Shown piece by piece: positions 20,158-44,369 of a stretch of 64,000 bases of DNA (positions within the stretch are counted from its first letter, which is position 1; each line of letters opens with the position of its first letter). The stretch lies in the IMG/VR virus record IMGVR_UViG_2597490295_000013, positions 21,285 through 85,284 of that record. The stretch is one strand, 5' to 3'. The translations under genes and the position numbers were made by a program. This DNA is from a virus. The notes beneath the pieces were generated by a model, which worked only from the letters and a program-made list of their open reading frames with translations, searched no databases and was not told where the DNA came from.

Positions 20158-21372
20158 ATGGGAGATTATTTTGATAGATATAAAGAAAGAATAAATATTT
20201 TAGGCAATACATTTGCGGAAAAAATGGATAAAGATGCGAAAGAAGTTTATGAAAGATATATGTTTGACAAAGGCACTGATACCGCAGTTATAAATTTGAA
20301 TGAATACCGCATTTCGAAGATAAATGATAAAGATAATGAAACAGTAGAACAGTATATAATTCTTGCAGACAGAAATTCTCCTTTTACGACAGGGACAGTT
20401 TTTGAAATTGATTGTGTTTTTTATATAGTTATTTATGAAGTACAAACTGAACATAACCAATATTTTAAAGGCTATGCTAGGAGATGTACTCATTCTTTGA
20501 AGATTAAAACTGAAGCGGGAGTGTATTTATATGATGCTTATATTGAAGGTATTAATGGTGTGAATATGAAAAGAACTGTTACAGAGGGCTTGATTGTAGA
20601 TGATGATCAAGCATCTGGTAAAGTTATAATACAAAAAGATAGTTATTTTAGATATATTAAACCTTTAAAAACTAGAATTTTTATTGGTGATGAAGTTTAT
20701 AAAATAGTTGGGAAAAATTCATTACAAGATATGGGATATTTAAGAGTTGAAAAAGATATTATTAATACTTTTACAGATAATAAAGTTTTAGGTATTGCAG
20801 ATTACTATGAAGATGTAGAAATCGAACATAATTTCTATATATCTGCGACAACTGTATCTGGGATTGCTCTTGGTTTAGATACTGAATATGAGATAGAGGA
20901 TATATTAGATATTCAAATAAAAAATTATGAGGGTGAATTTGTACCTATGGCATATACTTTAAATGCGATTGCTACGGAAATTAATATAAATGGAAGTAAA
21001 ATTACTCCTTTGGTTTTAGGAAATCTTAAACTTTATATTACTTTAGATGAGGATGTAAATTCAAGAGCTGAAGTAGTATTAGAAGTATTAAATGATGATA
21101 TTCTTAATTATACTATGACAGGAGAAGATACTTTAGTTTGGTCTGAATCATCAATTTATGAAATAACTAAATTTATATCTGATGTAGAAGTTCCTTCTAC
21201 TTGAGCATTTACAATAGAAAGTGGTGCGGATTTAGTTGATTTAGAGGTTATAGATGGAAATTCTTGCAGTTTAGTTGCTAAAGAAGAAGGACAAGTAGGT
21301 ATAGTTGTGCTCTTGGGCACTAATGGATTAGAAGAAGTTAGAATGAATATTAATATAGTATCATGGTGGTAA
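20158..21372 (+). CDS. Putative head closure/neck protein with a C-terminal Ig-like extension (404 aa, 1 TGA)
   Basis: Read-through at 21202-21204 extends to TAA 21372, just before the next RBS. Confidence 0.55.
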
Positions 21373-31959: not shown

Positions 31960-32012
31960 GAAGAGAAGATAATTCTCTTCTTTTCTTGACTTTTGAGAGG
32001 AAGGATGATATA

Positions 32013-32822
32013 ATGTTTACAGGAACAGATTTTAGTTATAATGGTATATTAGCTAGTAGTTTTGGATTATTAGTTGTAAATGTTGGAAGTAAAGATTCTG
32101 ATAGACCATTCGGATTACAAAGAGAAATAAGAGAAACAAGTAGAATAGATGGAAAAAATTCTTATCATGGATTAAGCAATGAACCATTAGAATTTACTAT
32201 TACTTTAGCAAGAGAAGAAGAATGAGATTTAGCAACTAGAAAAGATGTTGTAAAATGATTATTTCAAAATAATTATAAAGAATTAATTGATACGGATCAT
32301 CCTACTGTAATATATAATGCATTAATATATTCAGATAGTGAAATATTTACAGTTGGTAATATACCAAGATATATTACTTTAAATATAAGAACAGATGCTG
32401 CTTGAGGTTGAACACAAAGCTATGAATATGAACATGATTGTGATACAACTTTAGATATTCAAATTACTAATTTAACTAATTTGAATATGCCAGTTTATAC
32501 AGAAGTAGAAGTTACTTTAGAATCTGGTAATAGTTTTGAGATTCAATTTGATACTGATAAAGTATTTAAATTTATGAATGCAACTTATGGTGGAGATACT
32601 TATACATTAGTTATAGGAGAAACAATCTATGTAAACAATGATAAAAAAATAATTCTTTCAGACCAAACAGGTTCTGAAGATAAAAGAATAAAGAATTTTA
32701 TTAAAAGCGATGCAACAAAAGAAAGAAGTGATTGGTTTTATTTAACAGATGGAGTTAATGATATTACTTTAATAGGTAATGCAACATTTATAATAAGAGT
32801 TAAATACCCAGTTATGATTTAG
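32013..32822 (+). CDS. Distal tail protein (Dit)-like (269 aa, 4 TGA)
   Basis: MFTGTDFSYNGI start typical of Dit; fragments join in frame; directly after the TMP. Confidence 0.7.
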
Positions 32823-32839: not shown

Positions 32840-35800
32840 ATGTTAGGAGATATAAATTACCTAATTGGTCCAATAGAATATGAATTAATGCTAACTAAAC
32901 CAAATAAAGAACCGATAATTGCTATCTCTAATGACTATGGGAAAGTATATAATCCTTCAATGATTGCGGTGGATGAATTTAGCTTTAATATAGATAAATA
33001 TTATTCAGATGGAAGTATAAATGATTCATATAATAAAATTAAAGAAAAATTATTAATTAGATTAAATCAGCAAGAATTTTTTGTAATTATTGGCATAGAA
33101 GAAGATGAAGTAAATGGAATAAAAGAAATTATTTGCTATTCTTTAGAATTTGAACTTAGTCAAAAATTTATTCAAGTTTATGAAGTTACTTCAGCGAAAC
33201 TTTATAGTGATAATTCAGACATTCCAGGAGTAATGAATTTAATTAATTCATTAGCGCCATCATGGACAGTAGGAACGATAGATTCAGAAATTCTTACAAA
33301 ATATCGTTCTTTTGATGTAAGTAATATTGATATTCGTAGTTTTATTATAAAAAATATTCAAGAAGCATACGGATGTATTGCTATTTTTAATACAGACGAT
33401 AAAACAATAGATTTTAAATTATTAGAAAATATAGGAACTAACAAATCTTTGTATCTATCTACAGAGAATTTAATAAATGAATTAACAAGAAATAGAAAAT
33501 TAGAAAATTTAGCTACTAGAGTGTATGGATTTGGTTCAGAAGATTTAACAATGAATACAGTAAATCCTAATGCGGGAAAAAGTTATATTGATAATTGGTC
33601 TTATTTTAGAAATAGAGATTGGATGTCTCAAGGATTAATAGATGCTCTTGATGCGCATGATGTAATTGTTGCGGCGAATATCACAGAATTTCAAACTGTA
33701 TTAGCTGAGTATCAAGCAGAGTTTGAAGATAAGTATGGTTCAAATACAAACAATACTTTATTAGCAACATTAATTTCAGGTACGAATATTACATTTGATG
33801 ATAATGCTTCTGATTTAGATAGTTACTATAATGGTTGGGAATTATTGATTGACGCACCAAGTTCAACGAATTTAGATTGTGTAGGTCAAACTGCTACAAT
33901 AGTATCATATAATGGTACAACTAAAATTGCAACGATAGATTCTGCGTTTTCAATTGTGCAACATACTTATCAAACAGTACAAGTTACAGTTATAGATATC
34001 CCAGAAAATCCAGTAGGAGAAGAAGTTTATGCAGAAGGCGTTTATTTTATTTCTGAAGATATCGGTAATTATAGATTTTTACAAGTAACTTTAAGTAAAC
34101 AAGCTTATTTCCAAGAATATGAAATAGCATTAATCGCGAAGCATGCTTCAATAACTCCAACGCAAGATGATTTAGATGAATTAGCTGAAACTAGAACTCA
34201 TTTAGATTATTGGAATGGACAAGTAACAACTTATCAAGCTTTAGTTGATGCTAATGATACAGTACTTGATACAAAAACTACAAGATTACAAGAATTAAAT
34301 GTTATAATGGATATAGAAACAAATCTAACATTTGCGCAATTGCAAGAGTTAGATCCTTATATAATTGAGACAACTCATACAAATACTACGATTATAGATG
34401 AAACTGATTTATATGATGAAGTTAAAGAAATATCTGATAGAATGGCTTATCCTAGATATGAATTTAGTTTAAATGCGGCAGATTTTTTAAAAATGGTTGA
34501 ATATCAACATATAAGACATAGACTTAATACTGGAGATATAATTAATGTTAAAGTTTCTGATACAGAAGTTGTAGAAGTTAGATTATTAAGTTACACTCAT
34601 GATTTTGATGAAGATGGATTAGAAATGACTTTCTCTTCTGTAAATTCAATTCTTGATGCAACTTATGAATTAGCTGAAATTTTAAATAGCACTTCTAGTT
34701 CAGCGAATACACTTAATGTAGAACGTTTTAAATATAAAACATATATAGATAATGATCAAAATACGATTTATCAATTTATGAACAGTTACCTTGATGCAGC
34801 CAATAATGCAGTTAAAGCGGGTAATAATCAAGAAGTAATAATTGATAGAACAGGTATTACAATGAGAGAATTTGATCTTCTTACAGGTGGTTATAAAGAT
34901 AGCCAAATGCGGTTAATTAATAATACAATTGCTATTACTGATGACAATTGGAATACCGTTAAAACTGCGATAAGTCCAACTGGAGTTTTTGCAGATGTTT
35001 TAGTTGGTAGAGCAATACTTGGTACGGAATTTCAAATTGAAGCAGCAGATGGAACTTTTACAGTTGATGATTTAGGGACTGTAATTAAAAACATGTCTTT
35101 AACAGCAGTTAAGGATGAAGGATTAGGAACAGAAAGAAAAATAGTATTAAATGATACAGACGTAATTAGAGTTTCTATTGGTGAAGTTGACAAATTATGG
35201 ATTGACTCTAGTGGGGATTTAAATATAACTGGTAATATTAATATGAGCGCAAGTTCTACAATTTCTTGGGATAATATCACAGATGGAGATATTGAAGCTA
35301 AAGCAGCAGCGTTCGATGGAACTACTTATTCAACGTATATAGGAAGTGACGGAATTTATACAGGTACTTTAATTGCTAATAAAATATTAACTGGTACTCT
35401 TGGTGCTCCTGGTTCAACTTTAACTTTAACATCTAATGTTGTTATTGGTTCAGGTTTTTCAATTGCTTGGACAGATGTTACTAATTCAGATGCTAGTGCA
35501 GTCCTTGCATATGAAGGAACTTATATAGATGGAAATGGAGTTTATACTGGTGAAGTCAAAGCAGATAAACTTATAGGTCATGAATTATATATAGGAGATC
35601 CATTGGATCTTTATACTACAAGATTTATTGAATTTTCAAGTGGAATAAAAATTATTTCAGACTCATCTGGAACAGGGATTTTAAAATTTACAGCAGATAG
35701 AACTGATATATGTTATGATGGCAATTATTTAAATATAGGTCATAATAGCATGGTTGGTGATATTGTTTGTCAAGGAGATTGGGATTTTACCAATGCTACT

Positions 35801-36031
35801 GTATCAGGAATTTCTAGTGGAGTTGGTGGTTCTAATAGTTTTCTTGGTAATGGAAGTGGAAGAACAGTAACCCATGGGTTAGGGAGTACTCCTTCTTCTG
35901 TTACAATAACTGCTGATGGAGATCCTAATGGATGGTTAGGTGAAGTTTGAGTTGGTTCAATAGGTGCTACTACATTTATAGTTTATAATAGTGGAAACTA
36001 TATTGGAAATTTTAGATGGATTGCAGTATAA
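32840..36031 (+). CDS. Tail-associated baseplate hub/spike (Tal-like) protein (1063 aa, 1 TGA)
   Basis: Follows Dit; prophage tail endopeptidase-like N-terminus (ATRVYGFG); C-terminal VTHGLGSTP fibre-tip motif completed by read-through at 35948. Confidence 0.7.
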
Positions 36032-36040
36032 CATAATTTA

Positions 36041-36069
36041 TTGTGTTATATCAGCAATTTTGATATAAT
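36041..36069 (+). promoter_or_regulatory. Dedicated sigmaA-like promoter of the radical SAM cassette
   Basis: TTGTGT-17 nt-TATAAT with extended TG. Confidence 0.7.
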
Positions 36070-36109
36070 ATGTATGAATAAAGAATTAAAGAGAATAAAA
36101 GGAGGATAA

Positions 36110-37606
36110 ATGATGAAGTGGAAATGGATGCCTGCAGCAGCATCACTATTGTTAACAGAAGATTGTAATTTAAGATGCACTTATTGTTTCGAAAAGCATA
36201 ATAAAAAGAAAATGAGTAATGAAGTTGCACTTAAATCTTTAGAATTTTTATCTAATAATGCGATAGAAAATAAACAAAATTATTTTTCAGTTACGATGTT
36301 TGGTGGAGAACCATTATTACAACCAGATTTAATGGAATTTATTTTTAAAAATGGACATCGTATTGCGCAAGAAAAGAAGATTCATTTTTCTGTAACAATA
36401 ATTACTAATGCAACAATTATGTCTGATAAAATTTTTAATATGCTTTCTTATTGGAATACTAAAATAAGTTTAAGTGTTCAATTATCAGTAGATGGAAAAA
36501 AAGAAAGTCATGACTTATATAGAATTACTGCGGCTGGGATAGGAAGTTTTTATTTAATTGAAAAAAATATTCCTAAATTTAAAGAAATTTTTAAAAATAA
36601 TCCAAAGTCATTAAATATTCATGGAGTTATTAATAAAAAAACGTTACCAAAATTATATGAAAATTATAAAATGTTTAGAGAAGAATGAGGATTTTCAAGA
36701 ATTTGGTTTTTAATATTACAAAGTGAAACAGAATGAAGTTATGAAGATGTGGCAATTTATGAAGAAAATTTGCGATTAATAGCAGATTACCAATTGAATA
36801 TTGTTAGAAGAGAAGGCAATATAGATGAAATTCGTAATTATGCGCCAATTGATAAATGTTTAAGTTTTGAAAGAAATTTAAGTAATTCTCCTTGTGGAGC
36901 AGGTAAAAATTTTGTAACAATAACTGCAAATGGAGAAATTTATCCATGTCATCATTTTTATTTTAATGACCCTAATAAAGAAACTAAAATAGGAGATCTT
37001 GATAATGGTCTTGATGAAGCAGCTAGAAGAATTTATATAGATTATGATGGAACAGATTTAACTTGTGAAAAAAATTGTCCTAATAATAGTTGTTATAGAT
37101 GTATAGCACAAAATTGGACAGATAAAGGAAGTATTTTTTCTCAAATTAAGGGAATTAATTGTTTATTTTCAGGAGTTGAGAAAAAAATACAAGATTATAC
37201 ATTGAAAGAGTTGAGAAAAATGGGGATATTTAATAAAAGTAACCAAAAATCAAATAATCCTAATTGTTTATGTGATTTAAGAAGTGGAGAAAATCAATCA
37301 AATCAATCAAATAATTCTGATTGTTATTGTGATTTAAGAACGGGGAATAGTCAAACAGAAGGAGTTGGTTGTGGTAATAATGTAACTCCTAAAAATAATC
37401 AATCTAAAGAATCAGATTGTTATTGTGATTTAAGAACTGGAAATACTCAAACAATTTTTCCAGAAGGAGAAAAGCAAATGTCTTGTGAATTGAATGATGA
37501 GAAAAAATCAAAAAAAGAAATTGATATAATTCTTATTAATCAACTTGCTGAAGCAGTAATAAAAATTATAGATGAAATTGAAGAAATTAAAAAGAAAATA
37601 GAATAG
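36110..37606 (+). CDS. Radical SAM/SPASM maturase-like protein with C-terminal CxCDLRxG repeats (498 aa, 2 TGA)
   Basis: CNLRCTYC; MFGGEPLL; SPASM-like CGAG..GEIYPC..CEKNC..CYRC; fragments 36110 and 36749 in frame. Confidence 0.88.
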
Positions 37607-37615
37607 GAGAATATA

Positions 37616-39100
37616 ATGGGATATAGTTTAAGATCTGTTGCCAATGCTATAGCAGCGAATGGTGGATATGATATGACTCTTGATGCAGCATCGAAGTCAT
37701 TACAAACTTTAAAAAATCTTATTCTTGATACTAATTCTTTCAGAGAAAAGAGTACATCTTTATGTGAAACATATGTGTATGTAAATGCAAATTCAGCAAA
37801 TGATTCGTTCGGGGGAATTTCAGGTAAAATTAGTGAAATTATTGATTGCTCTTGTAATAGTGTTACCCCTACTTGCGATTGTCAAGATAGGACATCTGCT
37901 CCTGCTTGTACGTGTGATATGGATTATACTTGTGATTGTGAGTTAAGAACTGGAGAACCAACTTGTTTAACTGAAATTACATGTGATTGTCAATCTAGAT
38001 TTACTGCTGATTGTACTTGTGATAATAGAGTTGGAGATTGTAGTTGTCAAAGTAGGACATCTGTTCCAACTTGCACTTGTGATGTAGAAGATCCAGATAC
38101 TTGTGATTGCCAATCTAGAACATATTTACCAACTTGTGAATGTAATACTCTTGCAGCATGTAATTGTCAGAGTAGAACAGGTTCATCTTCTTGTACTTGT
38201 AATACTGATTTAGGAGGAACTTGTGATTGTCAAGCTAGAACAGCAGTTCCGGCTTGTACTTGTAATGTACAAGATACTTGTGATTGCCAATCTAGGACAT
38301 ATACACCAACTTGTACTTGTAATGTAGAAGATCCAGATACTTGTGATTGTCAAGCTAGAACAGCAGTACCAACTTGTACTTGTGATGTTAATCCTTATTG
38401 TGATTGCGATACCAGAACCTATGCACCAACTTGTACTTGTGATGGTAGAACTGCTACATGTGATTGTAATACTAGAACTGGTTGTATATTATTGATAGCT
38501 TGTAATTGTCAATCTAGGACTTATGCTCCAACTTGTACTTGTGATTTAAGAACAGGTATTTGTACATGCGAGAATAGAACTAGTGAACCAGCTTGTGATC
38601 TTAATGTACCAGGAAGTTGCACATGTGAGAATAGAACTTATGCACCAACTTGTACATGTAATGCAAGAACAAATACTTGTGATTGTGTAGATAGAACTAG
38701 TGAACCGGCATGTACTTCTTATACAGCTCCATACTGTACTTGCCAATTTAGGACAGGTGATCCAACTTGTCTTTGTAATTTAAGAACAGCTTCTTGTACT
38801 TGTCAGTCAAGAACAGGACAACCTGAATGTGATCTTAATATACCAGGCAGTTGTACATGCGAGAATAGAACTGCGATACCTAGTTGTACATGTAACATTG
38901 ATGCATATTGTGACTGTGAAAGTAGGACTGGAGAAGTAAGTTGTTATTGTGATTTAAGAACAGATTCTTGTGAATGTGTTGGTAGAGGAACTCCTGATTG
39001 TACGATAAATTTTCCAGCATGTACTTGCGAATCAAGAGATGCGGTACCTACTTGTGAATGTGATATTGATCAAACAGCTACAGACATTTTCAGTGAATAA
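37616..39100 (+). CDS. Cys-rich CxC repeat protein (494 aa, about 37 CxC motifs, about 80 Cys)
   Basis: About 77-aa non-repetitive N-terminus, then repeats of C-x-C-x-x-R-T-x-x-P-x alternating with shorter C-x-C linkers; AGGAG RBS; no Trp. Confidence 0.9.
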   Translation: MGYSLRSVANAIAANGGYDMTLDAASKSLQTLKNLILDTNSFREKSTSLCETYVYVNANSANDSFGGISGKISEIIDCSCNSVTPTCDCQDRTSAPACTCDMDYTCDCELRTGEPTCLTEITCDCQSRFTADCTCDNRVGDCSCQSRTSVPTCTCDVEDPDTCDCQSRTYLPTCECNTLAACNCQSRTGSSSCTCNTDLGGTCDCQARTAVPACTCNVQDTCDCQSRTYTPTCTCNVEDPDTCDCQARTAVPTCTCDVNPYCDCDTRTYAPTCTCDGRTATCDCNTRTGCILLIACNCQSRTYAPTCTCDLRTGICTCENRTSEPACDLNVPGSCTCENRTYAPTCTCNARTNTCDCVDRTSEPACTSYTAPYCTCQFRTGDPTCLCNLRTASCTCQSRTGQPECDLNIPGSCTCENRTAIPSCTCNIDAYCDCESRTGEVSCYCDLRTDSCECVGRGTPDCTINFPACTCESRDAVPTCECDIDQTATDIFSE

Positions 39101-39112
39101 AAGGAGAGAAAA

Positions 39113-40036
39113 ATGGAGAGATATGTTGTGCATGTAACTAAAAGATGTAACTTAGATTGTTTTTATTGTTATGAAGATGATAAGAGCAGTATTTATTCTT
39201 GAAAAGAAATTAAATATTTTATAGATGAAATAATAAAATATGCTAAAGAACCTTTTTCTATTGAATTCCTTGGTGGAGAACCTTGTTTAGAAACAGGATT
39301 GATGTTAAAAGCTATTAATTATTTTAAACAAAAAACAAATTTAATTGATAGTTTTGGTATTACTACTAATGGGACTATAGTAGATACAAACTTATTGCAA
39401 ATTTTAAAAGAGAATAAGAATGTTTATATAGGGATTAGTTTAGATGGGACAAAAAATATGAATCAGTTTAGAGTTTTTAAAAATACTAAAGATAATTCAT
39501 ATGATAAAGTAATAGAATCTATTGAAGTATTAAAAGAAAATGGGTTTATAGATAGAATAAGTATTCATATAGTAACTCATTTATATAATGTTTATTTATT
39601 ACATCATGGGATAAAGCATCTCCAATCTTTAGGAATTAAAAGAATTGGAGTTGGTACAATAGAAAAAACGATGGAAATTGATGATATGTACGTTAAAACT
39701 TTTGTTTCAGAATTTAAAAAAATATCAAAAGATATTGCTAAAGGGATAATAACAGTTCATATAGATTTATTAGATTATTTAAAACCAAAATCTGATGTTA
39801 GACATTATATATATGACAAAGGGAAAATTGTAGGAGAAAGTTATGGCAGAGCTAAAGACGATATAACAAATAATAAAAATAATTTTAATATTATTGCTCC
39901 AGGTTCACCATTCTCAGATATGATATATAATTTAAGAGAGACGGTTTATAATAATCATAAACAAATATTATTAAAAGAACAAAAACGAAAAGAATTTTAT
40001 AAATTATGTAATATTATTAAAGGAAAGACAAGCTAA
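39113..40036 (+). CDS. Second radical SAM protein without SPASM (307 aa, 1 TGA)
   Basis: AGGAG RBS; ATG 39113, VTKRCNLDCFYC, FLGGEP, ITTNG, ISLDG; the track ORF (39299) misses the CxxxCxxC motif because of the TGA at codon 30. Confidence 0.88.
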
Positions 40037-40070
40037 AATGCTTGTCTTTTTTTATAAAATATGATATAAT
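40024..40070 (+). terminator. Terminator closing the rSAM cassette, overlapping the promoter of the downstream fibre genes
   Basis: AAAGACAAGC-TAAAAT-GCTTGTCTTT plus T tract; TTGTCT(40042)-17-TATAAT(40065). Confidence 0.7.
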
Positions 40071-40107: not shown

Positions 40108-40272
40108 ATGTTAATTAAAATGTCACAAGAACAAATAAATAATTTAATGAGTTTATTAGATAGAGTTGAAATTAAAGGTTTTAAAGAAATACAAGTTATG
40201 ACAGATATAGTTAAATCTCTTCAACAAGCAAGACCAGAAGTTGAGTCAGATAAAGCAAATATTAAGAAATAA
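40108..40272 (+). CDS. Small hypothetical protein (54 aa), missing from the ORF track
   Basis: AAGGAGG RBS; MLIKMSQEQINNLMSLLDRVEIKGFKEIQ... Confidence 0.7.
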   Translation: MLIKMSQEQINNLMSLLDRVEIKGFKEIQVMTDIVKSLQQARPEVESDKANIKK

Positions 40273-40303: not shown

Positions 40304-41452
40304 ATGCCTAGTAATTCACCAAATTTTAGTTTTTTTATATATGATTCAACTGCAGATGAAGCTTCTTTATTTAAAGATTATATTGATCATATGGCTGATA
40401 ACTTTGGTATTTTAGATGATATAATTGTAGGAGAGATTACGGATATAACTCTTACAACTCCAGCAAACGGAGAACTTCTTATATTAGATACAGGAGTATG
40501 GATTAATAAGACTTTGGCTGAAGCAGGAATTTCTGCGACCGGTCATACGCATACAGCTAGTAATGTTACAGATTTTGATACAGAAGTAGGCAATCATACT
40601 GATGTTGCAGCGAATACTACACATAGAGGTATAACTGCGGGAAATCCTCATGGTGCGGAAGTAGAAGATTTAAGTGATGTAACGTTAGCATCAGCTGGAG
40701 ATAAAGAAATGTTAACATACAATACTAGCGGTGGTAATTGAATAAATAGGACTGCGGCTGAAGTAGGATTATCTGAAACGGGACATACTCATGCAGCTAG
40801 TAATATTACAGATTTTGATACTGAAGTAAGTAATAATAGTACAGTTGATACGAATACTACTCATTCAGGAACAACAACTGGAAATCCACATAGTTTAGAT
40901 ATGGATGATTTAGATAGTGTTTATTTTGGAAAATATAACAGTTTAACAACTGATGATTATTTAGTATATGATGGAACAGATTGAGTAAATGGACCATTTG
41001 ATATTAATGCTATATCTGATGTAACAATTTCATCATCAACTGATAATGAAGTATTAGCATATAATAATGCAACTTCTAAATGGATTAATCAGACCGCAGC
41101 AGAAGCGGGGTTAGCGACTGCATCAGATGTTAGCGTTTTACAAGCATATGGAACAATTAACACAAAATCAGCCTCGTCAACATTAGCATTAACAGATGCA
41201 AATGATTTTATTAAATGTACAAGTGCAACAGCTATGAATCTTACAGTTCCACCAAATTCAAGTGTGGCATTTACTATAGGGACTGTAATTGATGTATTAA
41301 ATTATGGTGCTGGAGTAGTTACAATTGTAGCAGGGAGTGGAGTAACGTTGCGTTCAATTGATAGTAATTTAGATATAAGTGGACAGTATGGCGGAGTTAC
41401 ACTTAAAAAGTTAGCTACTGATGAATGGTCAGTTATTGGAGCATTAGAATAG
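40304..41452 (+). CDS. Tail fibre protein (382 aa, 2 TGA)
   Basis: Repeats (WIN.T.AE.G...GHTH.AS..TDFDTEV; DLSDVT); C-terminal LTVP.NSSVAF.IGT...GAG.V..VAGSGVTL fibre module. Confidence 0.75.
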
Positions 41453-42689: not shown

Positions 42690-44369
42690 ATGCCACAAAA
42701 TACACCTAATTATGGATTAAAAAAATATAGCACTATCATAGATGGTCCAGAAATATTTGATAATTATATAGATGATACATCAAATAATTTTGAAATTATA
42801 GATACTGAATTAAATAGAGTAGAAGTTCAATCTGATTTTTATAAAGCTGGTTGAGATGATAACCAAACTTATCCAATTTTAAGTTTTGATGATTTAACTA
42901 GGACTTTTACAGTAGAAGGGAATGGTGCAACTTATTGGATTAATAATGTTCATTATTCTTTAGATATAGATGCTTCTATTCAAATTCCGGCAATTGAAGG
43001 AGTTCATTTTATTTATTTTACTAGCAGTGGTATAGAAACTTCTACTACAGAATGACCTTTTAATAATGAAGTATGTCCTATATCTATTACTTATTGAGAT
43101 AATACTAATTTAAAAAAGATTGGGTTAGGATATGAATTTCATAAATGAAGAATGGATCCAAGTCTTCATCATTATTTACATGATACACGTGGAACAGTAT
43201 ATAGCGAAGGTCTTGGTGTTACTCAGGTATCATCAACTACAATAAGAGTTGGTACAGGAACTATATTTGATGAAGATATAGAATTAAGAATAGGAGACAA
43301 TATAGGGAGTAGTCAAGTATTAAATCCATTGAGCAGTCCTATTGTTTATAGGATAGGAGAAGATGGAGATCTTAGATTAATTACAGCAAGTACTGACGTA
43401 TGTTATCTTAATCCAGGTCCAGAAATAAATACTTTTAATGGAAGTATTTGAGAAATGACATCTGTAAGTAATAATAAATATTTTTGTTATTGGTTACTTG
43501 CAACGAATGATTCAAATTTTCCAATAATTTTAGTACCAGGTCAAGTAGAAGGAGGAACATTAAAAGAAGCAGATGAATTGAACACTTTAGCAGGAATGCT
43601 TTTTGGAAATATTCATTTTGCAGAATTTGTTGTTTTATCAAGAGTTATGATGTTAGCAACTATAAGTTCTTATTCAATAGTACAAATAGATGATTATAGA
43701 ACTTCAAATGTTGCAAGTTCTTCTATCGTAAGCGAAAGTGCTCCTATTGTAATGGATGTTTTACCAGACATTACTACTAGAGATGCACTTGAGAATCCAT
43801 CTACGGGTAAACAAGTTCATATTATTGACGCAAGTGGAGATTCTAATGTCTACTCTAGCTGAGCACAGTATATTTACACAGGAGCGGTTTGAGTAAAAAC
43901 CAATGAAGATGATATTAATACTTCTTTTGGGACTTTTTATCAAAAAGAAACAGATCCATACAATATGGTTACAACTGGGACAAGTACTTTTACAGGAAAT
44001 AAAGTTGCATTAGTAATAACACAATCTGATATTCAAGGAGGAATAAGTCTTAATGGAGTAGATGGCAGACTTGAACATTCTGGAAGAGATACTAATTATC
44101 TCTTTAATGCTACTGCCACAGTTAGGGACCCTGATACTCCAAATATGAAAATTCATTTTATATTAGTTAAGAATGGAACAATATTTATAAATCCTTCAAT
44201 GAGCTATGGTAGATTAGAATCATTAGGAGCTGCTATGAGTTTAGATGCAGCATCTAATGTAAATATGTCAGATGGAGACTATATAGAAGTTTTTTGTAAA
44301 ACTGATAAATTAGATGGAGAATTTTGAGTTGATAGTATGCAATTACAATTAGTTCAAGTTCCACAATAA
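42690..44369 (+). CDS. Tail fibre / receptor-binding protein (559 aa, 8 TGA)
   Basis: MPQNTPNYGL start typical of fibres; three track fragments plus gaps join in one frame; C1q-like end (MSDGDYIEVFC). Confidence 0.7.

Follow-up and report, generated by a model that had tools for sequence, protein, structure and literature searches.

A conserved phage module linking two radical SAM enzymes, a CxC-repeat protein, and a fiber-tip domain, with a possible role in cross-linking a tail-attached protein

Gene content of the locus

The DNA analyzed here, referred to as the window, is a 64,000-nucleotide (nt) stretch of virus record IMGVR_UViG_2597490295_000013 (positions 21,285 to 85,284) from IMG/VR. 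Once TGA is read as Trp, the open reading frame (ORF) lists for the window contain three tightly packed plus-strand genes at 36110 to 40036, encoding a radical SAM enzyme with a SPASM domain (P0001), a Cys-x-Cys (CxC) repeat protein (P0002), and a second, smaller radical SAM enzyme that lacks SPASM (P0003). The region was read with genetic code 4 (TGA = Trp), with table 11 for comparison, under which the frames of P0001 and P0003 are split or truncated. A first-pass annotation had described the same unit of SPASM enzyme, 494-aa repeat protein, and SPASM-less enzyme, and code 4 ORFs combined with Pfam matches confirmed it. Coordinates of all features are collected in Table 1.

Table 1. Features of the radical SAM/CxC-repeat locus and its surroundings (window coordinates)
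Feature	Position	Strand	Basis or comment
P0001, radical SAM/SPASM enzyme, 498 aa	36110-37606	+	TGA = Trp at codons 193 and 209
P0001 C-terminal tail, three substrate-like CxCDLR motifs followed by an amphipathic terminal helix	37255-37606	+	
P0002, CxC-repeat protein, 494 aa	37616-39100	+	ORF list; zero TGA codons
P0002 nonrepeat N-terminal domain, residues 1-77	37616-37846	+	Conserved across family
P0002 CxCxxRT repeat region, 37 CxC motifs	37847-39100	+	Motif count
P0003, second radical SAM enzyme, 307 aa, without SPASM	39113-40036	+	TGA = Trp at codon 30
C-terminal tip domain (~65 aa) of Tal-like protein, residues 1000-1063	35840-36031	+	Fourth conserved module partner
Promoter-like site, TTGTGT-N14-TGATATAAT, extended -10	36041-36069	+	Good extended -10 match
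Intrinsic terminator candidate, 14-bp hairpin plus T-run	40020-40053	+	-17.5 kcal/mol, z = -6.85
Tal-like minor tail protein, 1,063 aa under code 4	32840-36031	+	phrog_6211, E 1e-112
Dit-like distal tail protein (context)	31986-32822	+	Weak match to phrog_202, E 3.6e-6
Protein with tail-fiber-like C terminus (context)	40304-41452	+	phrog_8780, phrog_16053, and phrog_6953 tail/tail-fiber families

Rereading the region with code 4, as the first-pass annotation had asked, was justified by alignment. The residues encoded by TGA in P0001 (W193 and W209) and P0003 (W30) align to conserved Trp in homologs from contigs that use code 11, and the single in-frame TGA found in the Tal-like gene (35948 to 35950) aligns to an invariant Trp of the tip domain described below. 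All four TGA positions checked therefore align to conserved Trp; on this ground, both a Gly reading (code 25) and a genuine stop codon were rejected. Judged from these alignments, TGA = Trp recoding in P0001 and P0003 is real.

Linkage of the enzymes to CxC-repeat genes

Loci were gathered outward from P0003 in viral, genome, and metagenome collections, and every locus was scanned by script. Close relatives of P0003 had 37 to 50% identity, and only loci with enough flanking DNA were counted. A CxC-rich ORF of 200 to 1,070 aa lay beside the close P0003 relative in 17 of 17 distinct phage and prophage loci, whereas ORFs with three or more CxCxxR[TSD] motifs were absent from 96 control loci, which the same scans had picked up around radical SAM genes of more distant kinship. 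Consistent linkage between the enzymes and Cys-repeat genes was the test set beforehand for the first-pass proposal, and its positive outcome supports a dedicated, conserved system.

A P0001 relative (37 to 54% identity) was present in nearly all 17 loci. At one locus (L013) the contig ends at the position expected for this gene, and another (L043) showed just an extended small-type enzyme and no P0001 relative. Gene order was variable (large enzyme-CxC-small enzyme, large-small-CxC, or small-large-CxC), but the set stays together. Approached from the other side, a word-index search with P0002 returned four relatives, and both enzyme types adjoin the repeat gene on all of their contigs. A metagenome scan with P0003 added only six more close relatives, most on very short contigs. 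Relatives were found in bins labeled Clostridia, Tissierella, Peptostreptococcaceae, and Thermoanaerobacterales and also in some further bins whose labels are unlikely.

The CxC-repeat protein family

P0002 contains 81 Cys; its CxC motifs number 37 and begin at residue 78, in agreement with the first-pass count of about 37 motifs after a leader of about 77 aa. Shuffles of the same region contained 15.2 ± 3.1 motifs, the largest value being 28 in 2,000 shuffles. Units of 11 residues mostly alternate with units of 8 to 10, with the consensus C-[TD]-C-[QND]-x-R-T, and tandem units of 57 to 120 nt are evident in the DNA at 38066 to 38663 within the gene.

An exhaustive profile search expanded the repeat family to 144 clusters at 50% identity, 110 of them at E ≤ 1e-10, with member lengths mostly between 150 and 340 aa. 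Across 109 members (median length, 248 aa; median Cys content, 12%), 1,455 units gave the consensus C-x-C-[NDQ]-x-R-T, with Arg at 67% and Thr at 40% and a unit length of mostly 8 to 11 residues; leaving Cys and Arg aside, Thr was the most frequent residue at its place in the unit. An 85-aa N-terminal domain is common to family members, and many also share a conserved C-terminal end beyond the repeats. This conservation refutes the idea that P0002 is a noncoding or chance low-complexity frame, to which we assign virtually no probability; only the odd composition of the protein speaks for it, while the 494 codons without a TGA and the excess of CxC motifs over shuffles also speak against it. 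The first-pass annotation had called P0002 a giant substrate; it does lie at the long end of the family, but members are protein-sized throughout, with a median of about 250 aa.

Sequence and structure databases gave little to compare the family with. P0002 had zero matches in Pfam, NCBIfam, or PHROG, no match among GenBank phages by tblastn, and no usable match in the ESM Atlas, and 17 family members had no Pfam or NCBIfam match at E ≤ 0.1, save for one chance transposase hit. An AlphaFold2 (AF2) model of P0002 built from a 17-sequence alignment predicted a helical fold for the N-terminal 80 residues (predicted local distance difference test [pLDDT] score, ~80), and a structural search of the entire PDB with the model returned no match above Z 4.2.

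Several members depart from the common architecture. A variant branch (L008/L045 and L009) encodes CxC-repeat proteins without the usual N-terminal domain, starting directly with CxC units. P0004 and P0005 carry extra non-Cys domains in mid-protein (residues ~245 to 400, between two repeat arms), and P0104 carries an extra non-Cys C-terminal domain of ~340 aa (residues ~275 to 612), with both enzyme types flanking its gene. The central domains of P0004 and P0005 and the extra domains of the long members P0082, P0095, P0104, P0077, and P0103 had no Pfam or PHROG match. A weak, feature-based ESM Atlas lead connected the P0005 central domain to DUF859 (score, 0.80) and was not relied on.

The repeat also occurs inside a structural protein. 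A CxCxxRT run is found at about residues 980 to 1075 of a 1,730-aa DUF4815 protein, whose gene follows Phage_base_V, gp25, and BW3TFN genes and precedes genes for two more DUF4815 proteins.

The two radical SAM enzymes

P0001 matched the Pfam families Radical_SAM (PF04055; 49.5 bits, above the cutoff of 29.5), Fer4_12, and SPASM (PF13186; 22.5 bits, above the cutoff of 21.5). The three Cys of its CX3CX2C cluster motif, at residues 19 to 26, are invariant in 13 homologs, and SPASM Cys 262, 280, 319, 323, 328, 331, and 351 are kept in 12 or 13 of the 13. Its best curated NCBIfam matches, every one a cross-linker of peptides or proteins, were the PapB family, the SCIFF maturase, CcpM, the CXXX-repeat maturase, and QhpD, with the top match, to the PapB family (NF047865), reaching 200 bits and thus falling below the membership cutoff of 340. 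The closest solved structure was CteB (5WGG; E 1.7e-25), in an alignment that starts at P0001 residue 8 and CteB residue 96.

Beyond the SPASM domain, P0001 ends in a low-complexity tail carrying the substrate-like motifs and the terminal helix. The CxC at residues 405 and 407 (window positions 37322 to 37330) lies in an NPN-x-C-L-C-D-x-R-G-like motif present in 13 of 13 homologs, and the terminal helix is likewise conserved in all 13. Homologs share one conserved copy of the motif, and P0001 itself has three. From its sequence, this CxC-D-x-R motif could be a built-in pseudosubstrate or tether.

P0003 matched Radical_SAM alone in Pfam, at 67.7 bits (PF04055 cutoff, 29.5). Across 14 homologs, its only conserved Cys are the three of the CX3CX2C motif, with none of the SPASM Cys, and this lack of an auxiliary cluster makes a canonical thioether mechanism unlikely for P0003. 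Its score against the PapB family was 102 bits, below the cutoff of 340, and CteB (5WGG) was the closest solved structure for this enzyme too. Kinship with P0001 is distant (29% identity over 117 residues). The small-type enzyme at L043:3248-4783 is 42% identical to P0003 over residues 1 to 291 and has an additional ~200 aa at its C terminus; it sits after a 1,067-aa repeat-bearing protein.

A conserved tip domain upstream of the triad

A fourth partner is encoded immediately before the three genes. The C-terminal ~65 aa of the Tal-like protein, referred to here as the tip domain, are 36 to 51% identical to the C termini of genes directly upstream of the triad in other loci, and a tip-domain profile matched immediately upstream of the triad in 12 distinct loci. 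The domain spans the in-frame TGA noted above; it is complete only under the recoded reading and is halved under the standard code, with which the Tal-like gene ends at 35950. The first-pass annotation regarded the cassette as self-contained. The three-gene unit is indeed bounded, but it is not fully self-contained because this conserved domain is encoded upstream of the promoter-like site, fused to the Tal-like protein.

In L002, L010, and L015, the tip domain is a stand-alone ORF of 80 to 130 aa. Another locus (L011:4774-11417) has two repeat genes (202 and 335 aa) with one enzyme pair between them and a tip-domain ORF in front of each repeat gene, the second copy standing alone directly before the second CxC gene. 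At L008/L045, the one locus with enough upstream DNA among those whose repeat protein is without the usual N-terminal domain, the tip domain is missing as well, and this paired absence is a weak fit with the two domains working together.

An AF2 model of the tip domain (pLDDT, ~90) was a six-strand beta sandwich. Fold matches were weak but consistent, including the R2 pyocin fiber C terminus, the receptor-binding domain of the cyanophage Pam1 tailspike, H-type lectins, gp53-like fiber C-terminal domains, and K1 lyase C-terminal domains, and the modeled domain resembles a lectin-like fiber or tailspike tip.

Gene neighborhoods placed the module in tail regions. For example, L003 is a PBSX-like prophage in which the triad comes after genes for sheath, tube, tape measure, Baseplate_J, and Mu_Gp48 and ahead of the holin and amidase genes, with no other fiber-sized gene called between the baseplate and lysis genes. 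A tally over ten loci found Baseplate_J (four loci), Mu_Gp48 (three loci), YQBQ, Phage_tail_fib, Sheath_initiator, Sipho_Gp37, and tape measure genes upstream, and lysis genes among those downstream. Several upstream proteins had strong tail-fiber or tail-collar-fiber PHROG matches in their N-terminal parts. Encoding in the tail or baseplate module beside fiber genes was the pattern, with L002 as the single exception.

Cassette boundaries and genome setting

The first-pass annotation placed the cassette between the baseplate hub and the tail fibers, and PHROG matches agree: Dit- and Tal-like genes lie upstream and fiber genes downstream, beginning with a protein with a fiber-like C terminus. 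It also gave the cassette its own promoter and terminator, and these fared differently. The terminator hairpin, with the P0003 stop codon inside its loop, was matched in stability by none of 200 shuffles and is, from its predicted fold, a strong candidate. The TTGTGT-N14-TGATATAAT pattern has two copies in the window (0.02 expected), at 36041 to 36069 and, just past the terminator, at 40042 to 40070. Generic promoter-like matches in the region were no more frequent than in shuffles, and for this reason the first copy is rated a plausible functional promoter rather than a demonstrated one.

Between the terminator and the next fiber gene, a 54-aa ORF (40108 to 40272) matched phrog_18977, a family of unknown function, at E 5e-13. 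Two proteins of the downstream fiber region are alike over their first 38 residues (40304 to 40417 and 42690 to 42803; 39% identity), and from this common start they might be alternative fibers with a shared attachment module.

The window is carried on a 127.8-kb contig (C53) within a 2.1-Mb genome bin. TGA readthrough adds far more long open frames in this contig than in the other large contigs of the bin, which appear to use code 11. Outside the window, 24 tRNA genes form an array (C53:102150-115175) that includes a tRNA with anticodon UCA (C53:115102-115175), labeled SeC by ARAGORN; the only tRNA-Trp(CCA) of the bin is on another contig (C7). This arrangement fits a phage bringing its own UGA decoder. 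The portal protein is ~33% identical to portals of 134- to 142-kb Enterococcus phages. Rather than a demonstrated prophage, C53 is probably the genome of a phage, at least 128 kb long, that fell into the same bin as a bacterial genome. The DNA comes from a marine sediment metagenome and, among sequencing runs, was present only in this probable source sample, no RNA run being among them.

Relation to known systems

The first-pass annotation knew of no characterized system of this form, and a literature search likewise found no description of such a phage radical SAM/Cys-repeat system. It likened the enzymes to maturases that form thioether cross-links, and the curated families nearest to P0001 (PapB, SCIFF/CteB, CcpM, and QhpD) are maturases of this type, although all matches are below family cutoffs.

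The best-scoring curated family for both P0001 and P0003 was that of PapB, the maturase of PapA (freyrasin; NF047865). PapB joins Cys to an Asp or Glu acceptor, which has to lie on the C-terminal side of that Cys (PMC12373016); PapB is also said to dock the leader via a recognition element (PMC12373016). PapB shares the radical SAM plus SPASM architecture of P0001, and PapA resembles P0002 in its numerous Cys at regular spacing, with an acceptor lying a few residues C-terminal to each. However, PapA is a short peptide with six CX3D motifs, whereas the family described here consists of proteins of 150 to 550 aa built from CxCxxRT units. No leader-docking recognition domain was seen in P0001, and unlike the PapB system, the phage module includes a second, SPASM-less radical SAM enzyme and a tail-fiber tip domain.

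CteB, which acts on CteA (SCIFF; thermocellin), forms a Cys-to-Thr thioether, and P0002-type repeats are also rich in Thr at a fixed position. P0001 scored 125.7 bits against the SCIFF maturase model (TIGR03974), far from its cutoff of 425, the model of the short SCIFF precursor (six Cys in 45) did not match the 494-aa P0002, and nothing in P0001 corresponds to the N-terminal recognition domain of CteB.

The best functional analogy for a virion protein is QhpD/QhpC. QhpD, a SPASM enzyme, puts several Cys-to-Asp/Glu thioethers into a protein subunit, which remains built into a larger assembly instead of being set free as a peptide. The score of P0001 against QhpD (TIGR03906) was 111.5 bits for a cutoff of 453, and QhpC is unrelated to P0002, without repeats or phage context.

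The CXXX-repeat system (TIGR04115 maturase, TIGR04119 companion, and TIGR04114/PF27846 targets) likewise couples a target with Cys repeats to a SPASM enzyme of its own and a companion protein. P0001 matched it partially (113.5 bits for TIGR04115, cutoff 350; 73.7 bits for TIGR04119, cutoff 150), in both cases short of membership. The companion there is a SPASM-only protein, where the phage module has a radical SAM enzyme; the repeat unit of the phage proteins (CxCxxRT, 8 to 11 aa) is unlike CXXX, and they fit no TIGR04114/PF27846 model.

On the structural side, T4 gp37-gp38, Mu S-U, and P2 H-G each consist of a fiber gene followed by a gene for a protein acting at the fiber tip, and the module has the same fiber-gene-then-partner order. 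In gp38-type adhesins, a domain rich in small repeated motifs serves as the host-binding cap, a parallel taken as a lead only. No sequence or fold relation to these fiber-tip partners was found, and none of them comes with modifying enzymes.

Proposed function and alternatives

Strict three-way linkage, a SPASM enzyme of the thioether type, and a substrate-like motif in the tail of that enzyme together make P0002 very likely the substrate. The explanation we consider best, held at about even confidence, is that the module is a conserved four-part phage set whose product is a covalently cross-linked, tail-attached protein. Its parts would be a Tal or tail-fiber protein with a small lectin-like tip domain at its C terminus; a radical SAM/SPASM enzyme of the type that makes thioethers; a protein in which many C-x-C-x-x-R-T units come after a helical N-terminal domain of 85 aa; and a second radical SAM enzyme with the SAM cluster alone.

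Late in infection, the SPASM enzyme would abstract hydrogen from acceptor side chains in each repeat. Candidate acceptors are the conserved Thr of C-X3-T, which stands four residues past the second Cys, or an Asp, Asn, Gln, or Glu beside a Cys, and these would be joined to Cys sulfurs; the second Cys might, for instance, be linked to this Thr. The repeat region would become a ladder of small thioether rings with no need for a disulfide-forming environment. The ring in each unit is proposed by analogy with CteB (Cys-Thr) and PapB (Cys-Asp/Glu), an analogy that leads us to favor thioethers as the links, if with reserve. The P0003-type enzyme would add a further radical modification of unspecified kind, and the stapled protein would ride on the tail as part of the host-binding apparatus, probably docked via its N-terminal domain onto the tip domain encoded just upstream.

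The first-pass annotation had offered three possible products: a cross-linked virion fiber, a polyprotein cut into many peptide cores, or a metal or iron-sulfur (Fe-S) scaffold. Context favors the first of these, given the fiber slot, the tip domain, and the repeat within the 1,730-aa baseplate-module protein. Two alternatives to a stapled virion part fare about equally, and both are unlikely.

In one, the repeat protein would be an intracellular assembly factor or chaperone for the fiber bearing the tip domain and would be missing from the finished virion. The module follows a fiber gene or a tip-domain ORF, the usual place of fiber assembly genes, and ordinary fiber genes lie downstream in the window. 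A chaperone would not be expected to need two enzymes of its own and cross-linkable repeats numbering 10 to 37, however. Also against this role, the CxCxxRT repeat is built into a baseplate-module protein, and some members have extra globular domains, as fibers do.

The other alternative, to which we give an equally low probability, is a phage-carried peptide natural product pathway, in which a cross-linked precursor is released at lysis, whole or as cores, to act as a bacteriocin-like or signaling molecule. In its favor, all of the nearest enzyme families mature ribosomal peptides, the conserved N-terminal domain of 85 aa might act as a long leader, a promoter-like site and a terminator belong to the cassette itself, and the L002 cassette lies away from tail genes. 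Against such a pathway, the window cassette neither contains nor adjoins a gene for a protease, an exporter, or immunity, and none was called beside the cassette in three loci inspected gene by gene; the same is true of transporter genes in the cassette and beside these loci, though host enzymes could serve. No regular cleavage motif was seen between P0002 units, conservation extends past the repeats into the C-terminal end, and the tip domain is an obligatory neighbor. Attachment to the virion is favored over release as a peptide because the cassette occupies a tail-fiber slot, is accompanied by the tip domain, lacks protease and exporter genes, and encodes a repeat that recurs within a structural protein of the baseplate module. 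We regard a product located on the virion as reasonably probable.

CxC motifs and a Cys content of 16% are typical of metallothioneins, and P0002 shares both. A metallothionein-like metal or Fe-S scaffold that is no substrate, with the enzymes acting elsewhere, is nevertheless very improbable: the phage does have three Fe-S enzymes to supply, but metal binding leaves the fixed Arg and Thr in the units of 109 members unexplained, linkage to both enzyme families is strict, and the substrate motif in the large-enzyme tail of 13 of 13 homologs points to motif recognition.

Several observations count against a stapled protein attached to the tail. The AF2 repeats of P0002 were at a pLDDT of ~30, and a fiber-like fold was not obtained. 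Every curated maturase family scores P0001 below its cutoff, and the start of the CteB alignment leaves no room in P0001 for a CteB-like N-terminal recognition domain. No radical SAM gene lies within 10 kb of the repeat-bearing DUF4815 gene. The L002 cassette sits among replication genes, though with a stand-alone tip-domain ORF, and the ordinary fiber genes downstream in the window also fit less well. Tip-type domains normally terminate a fiber, and attachment beyond one would be unusual. The fullest form of the proposal, in which phages of anaerobes combine radical SAM stapling with a second radical modification to produce a cross-linked protein docked on the tail-fiber tip, is held slightly more tentatively, at just under even odds.

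Implications

The module defines an undescribed protein family of about 110 to 144 clusters at 50% identity, together with a subfamily of radical SAM enzymes that lack auxiliary clusters, and each comes with a clear candidate substrate. In its enzymology, the module probably varies the known process of thioether maturation; what would be new is its biological use. If the proposal is true, radical SAM thioether chemistry would extend from short secreted peptides to protein-sized virion parts, and the repeat units could serve as genetically encoded, enzyme-stapled scaffolds. It would amount to enzymatic, nondisulfide hardening of the host-binding apparatus of a virion, for which no description was found for any virus particle, and would give phages of strict anaerobes one way to stabilize extracellular structures without disulfide bonds.

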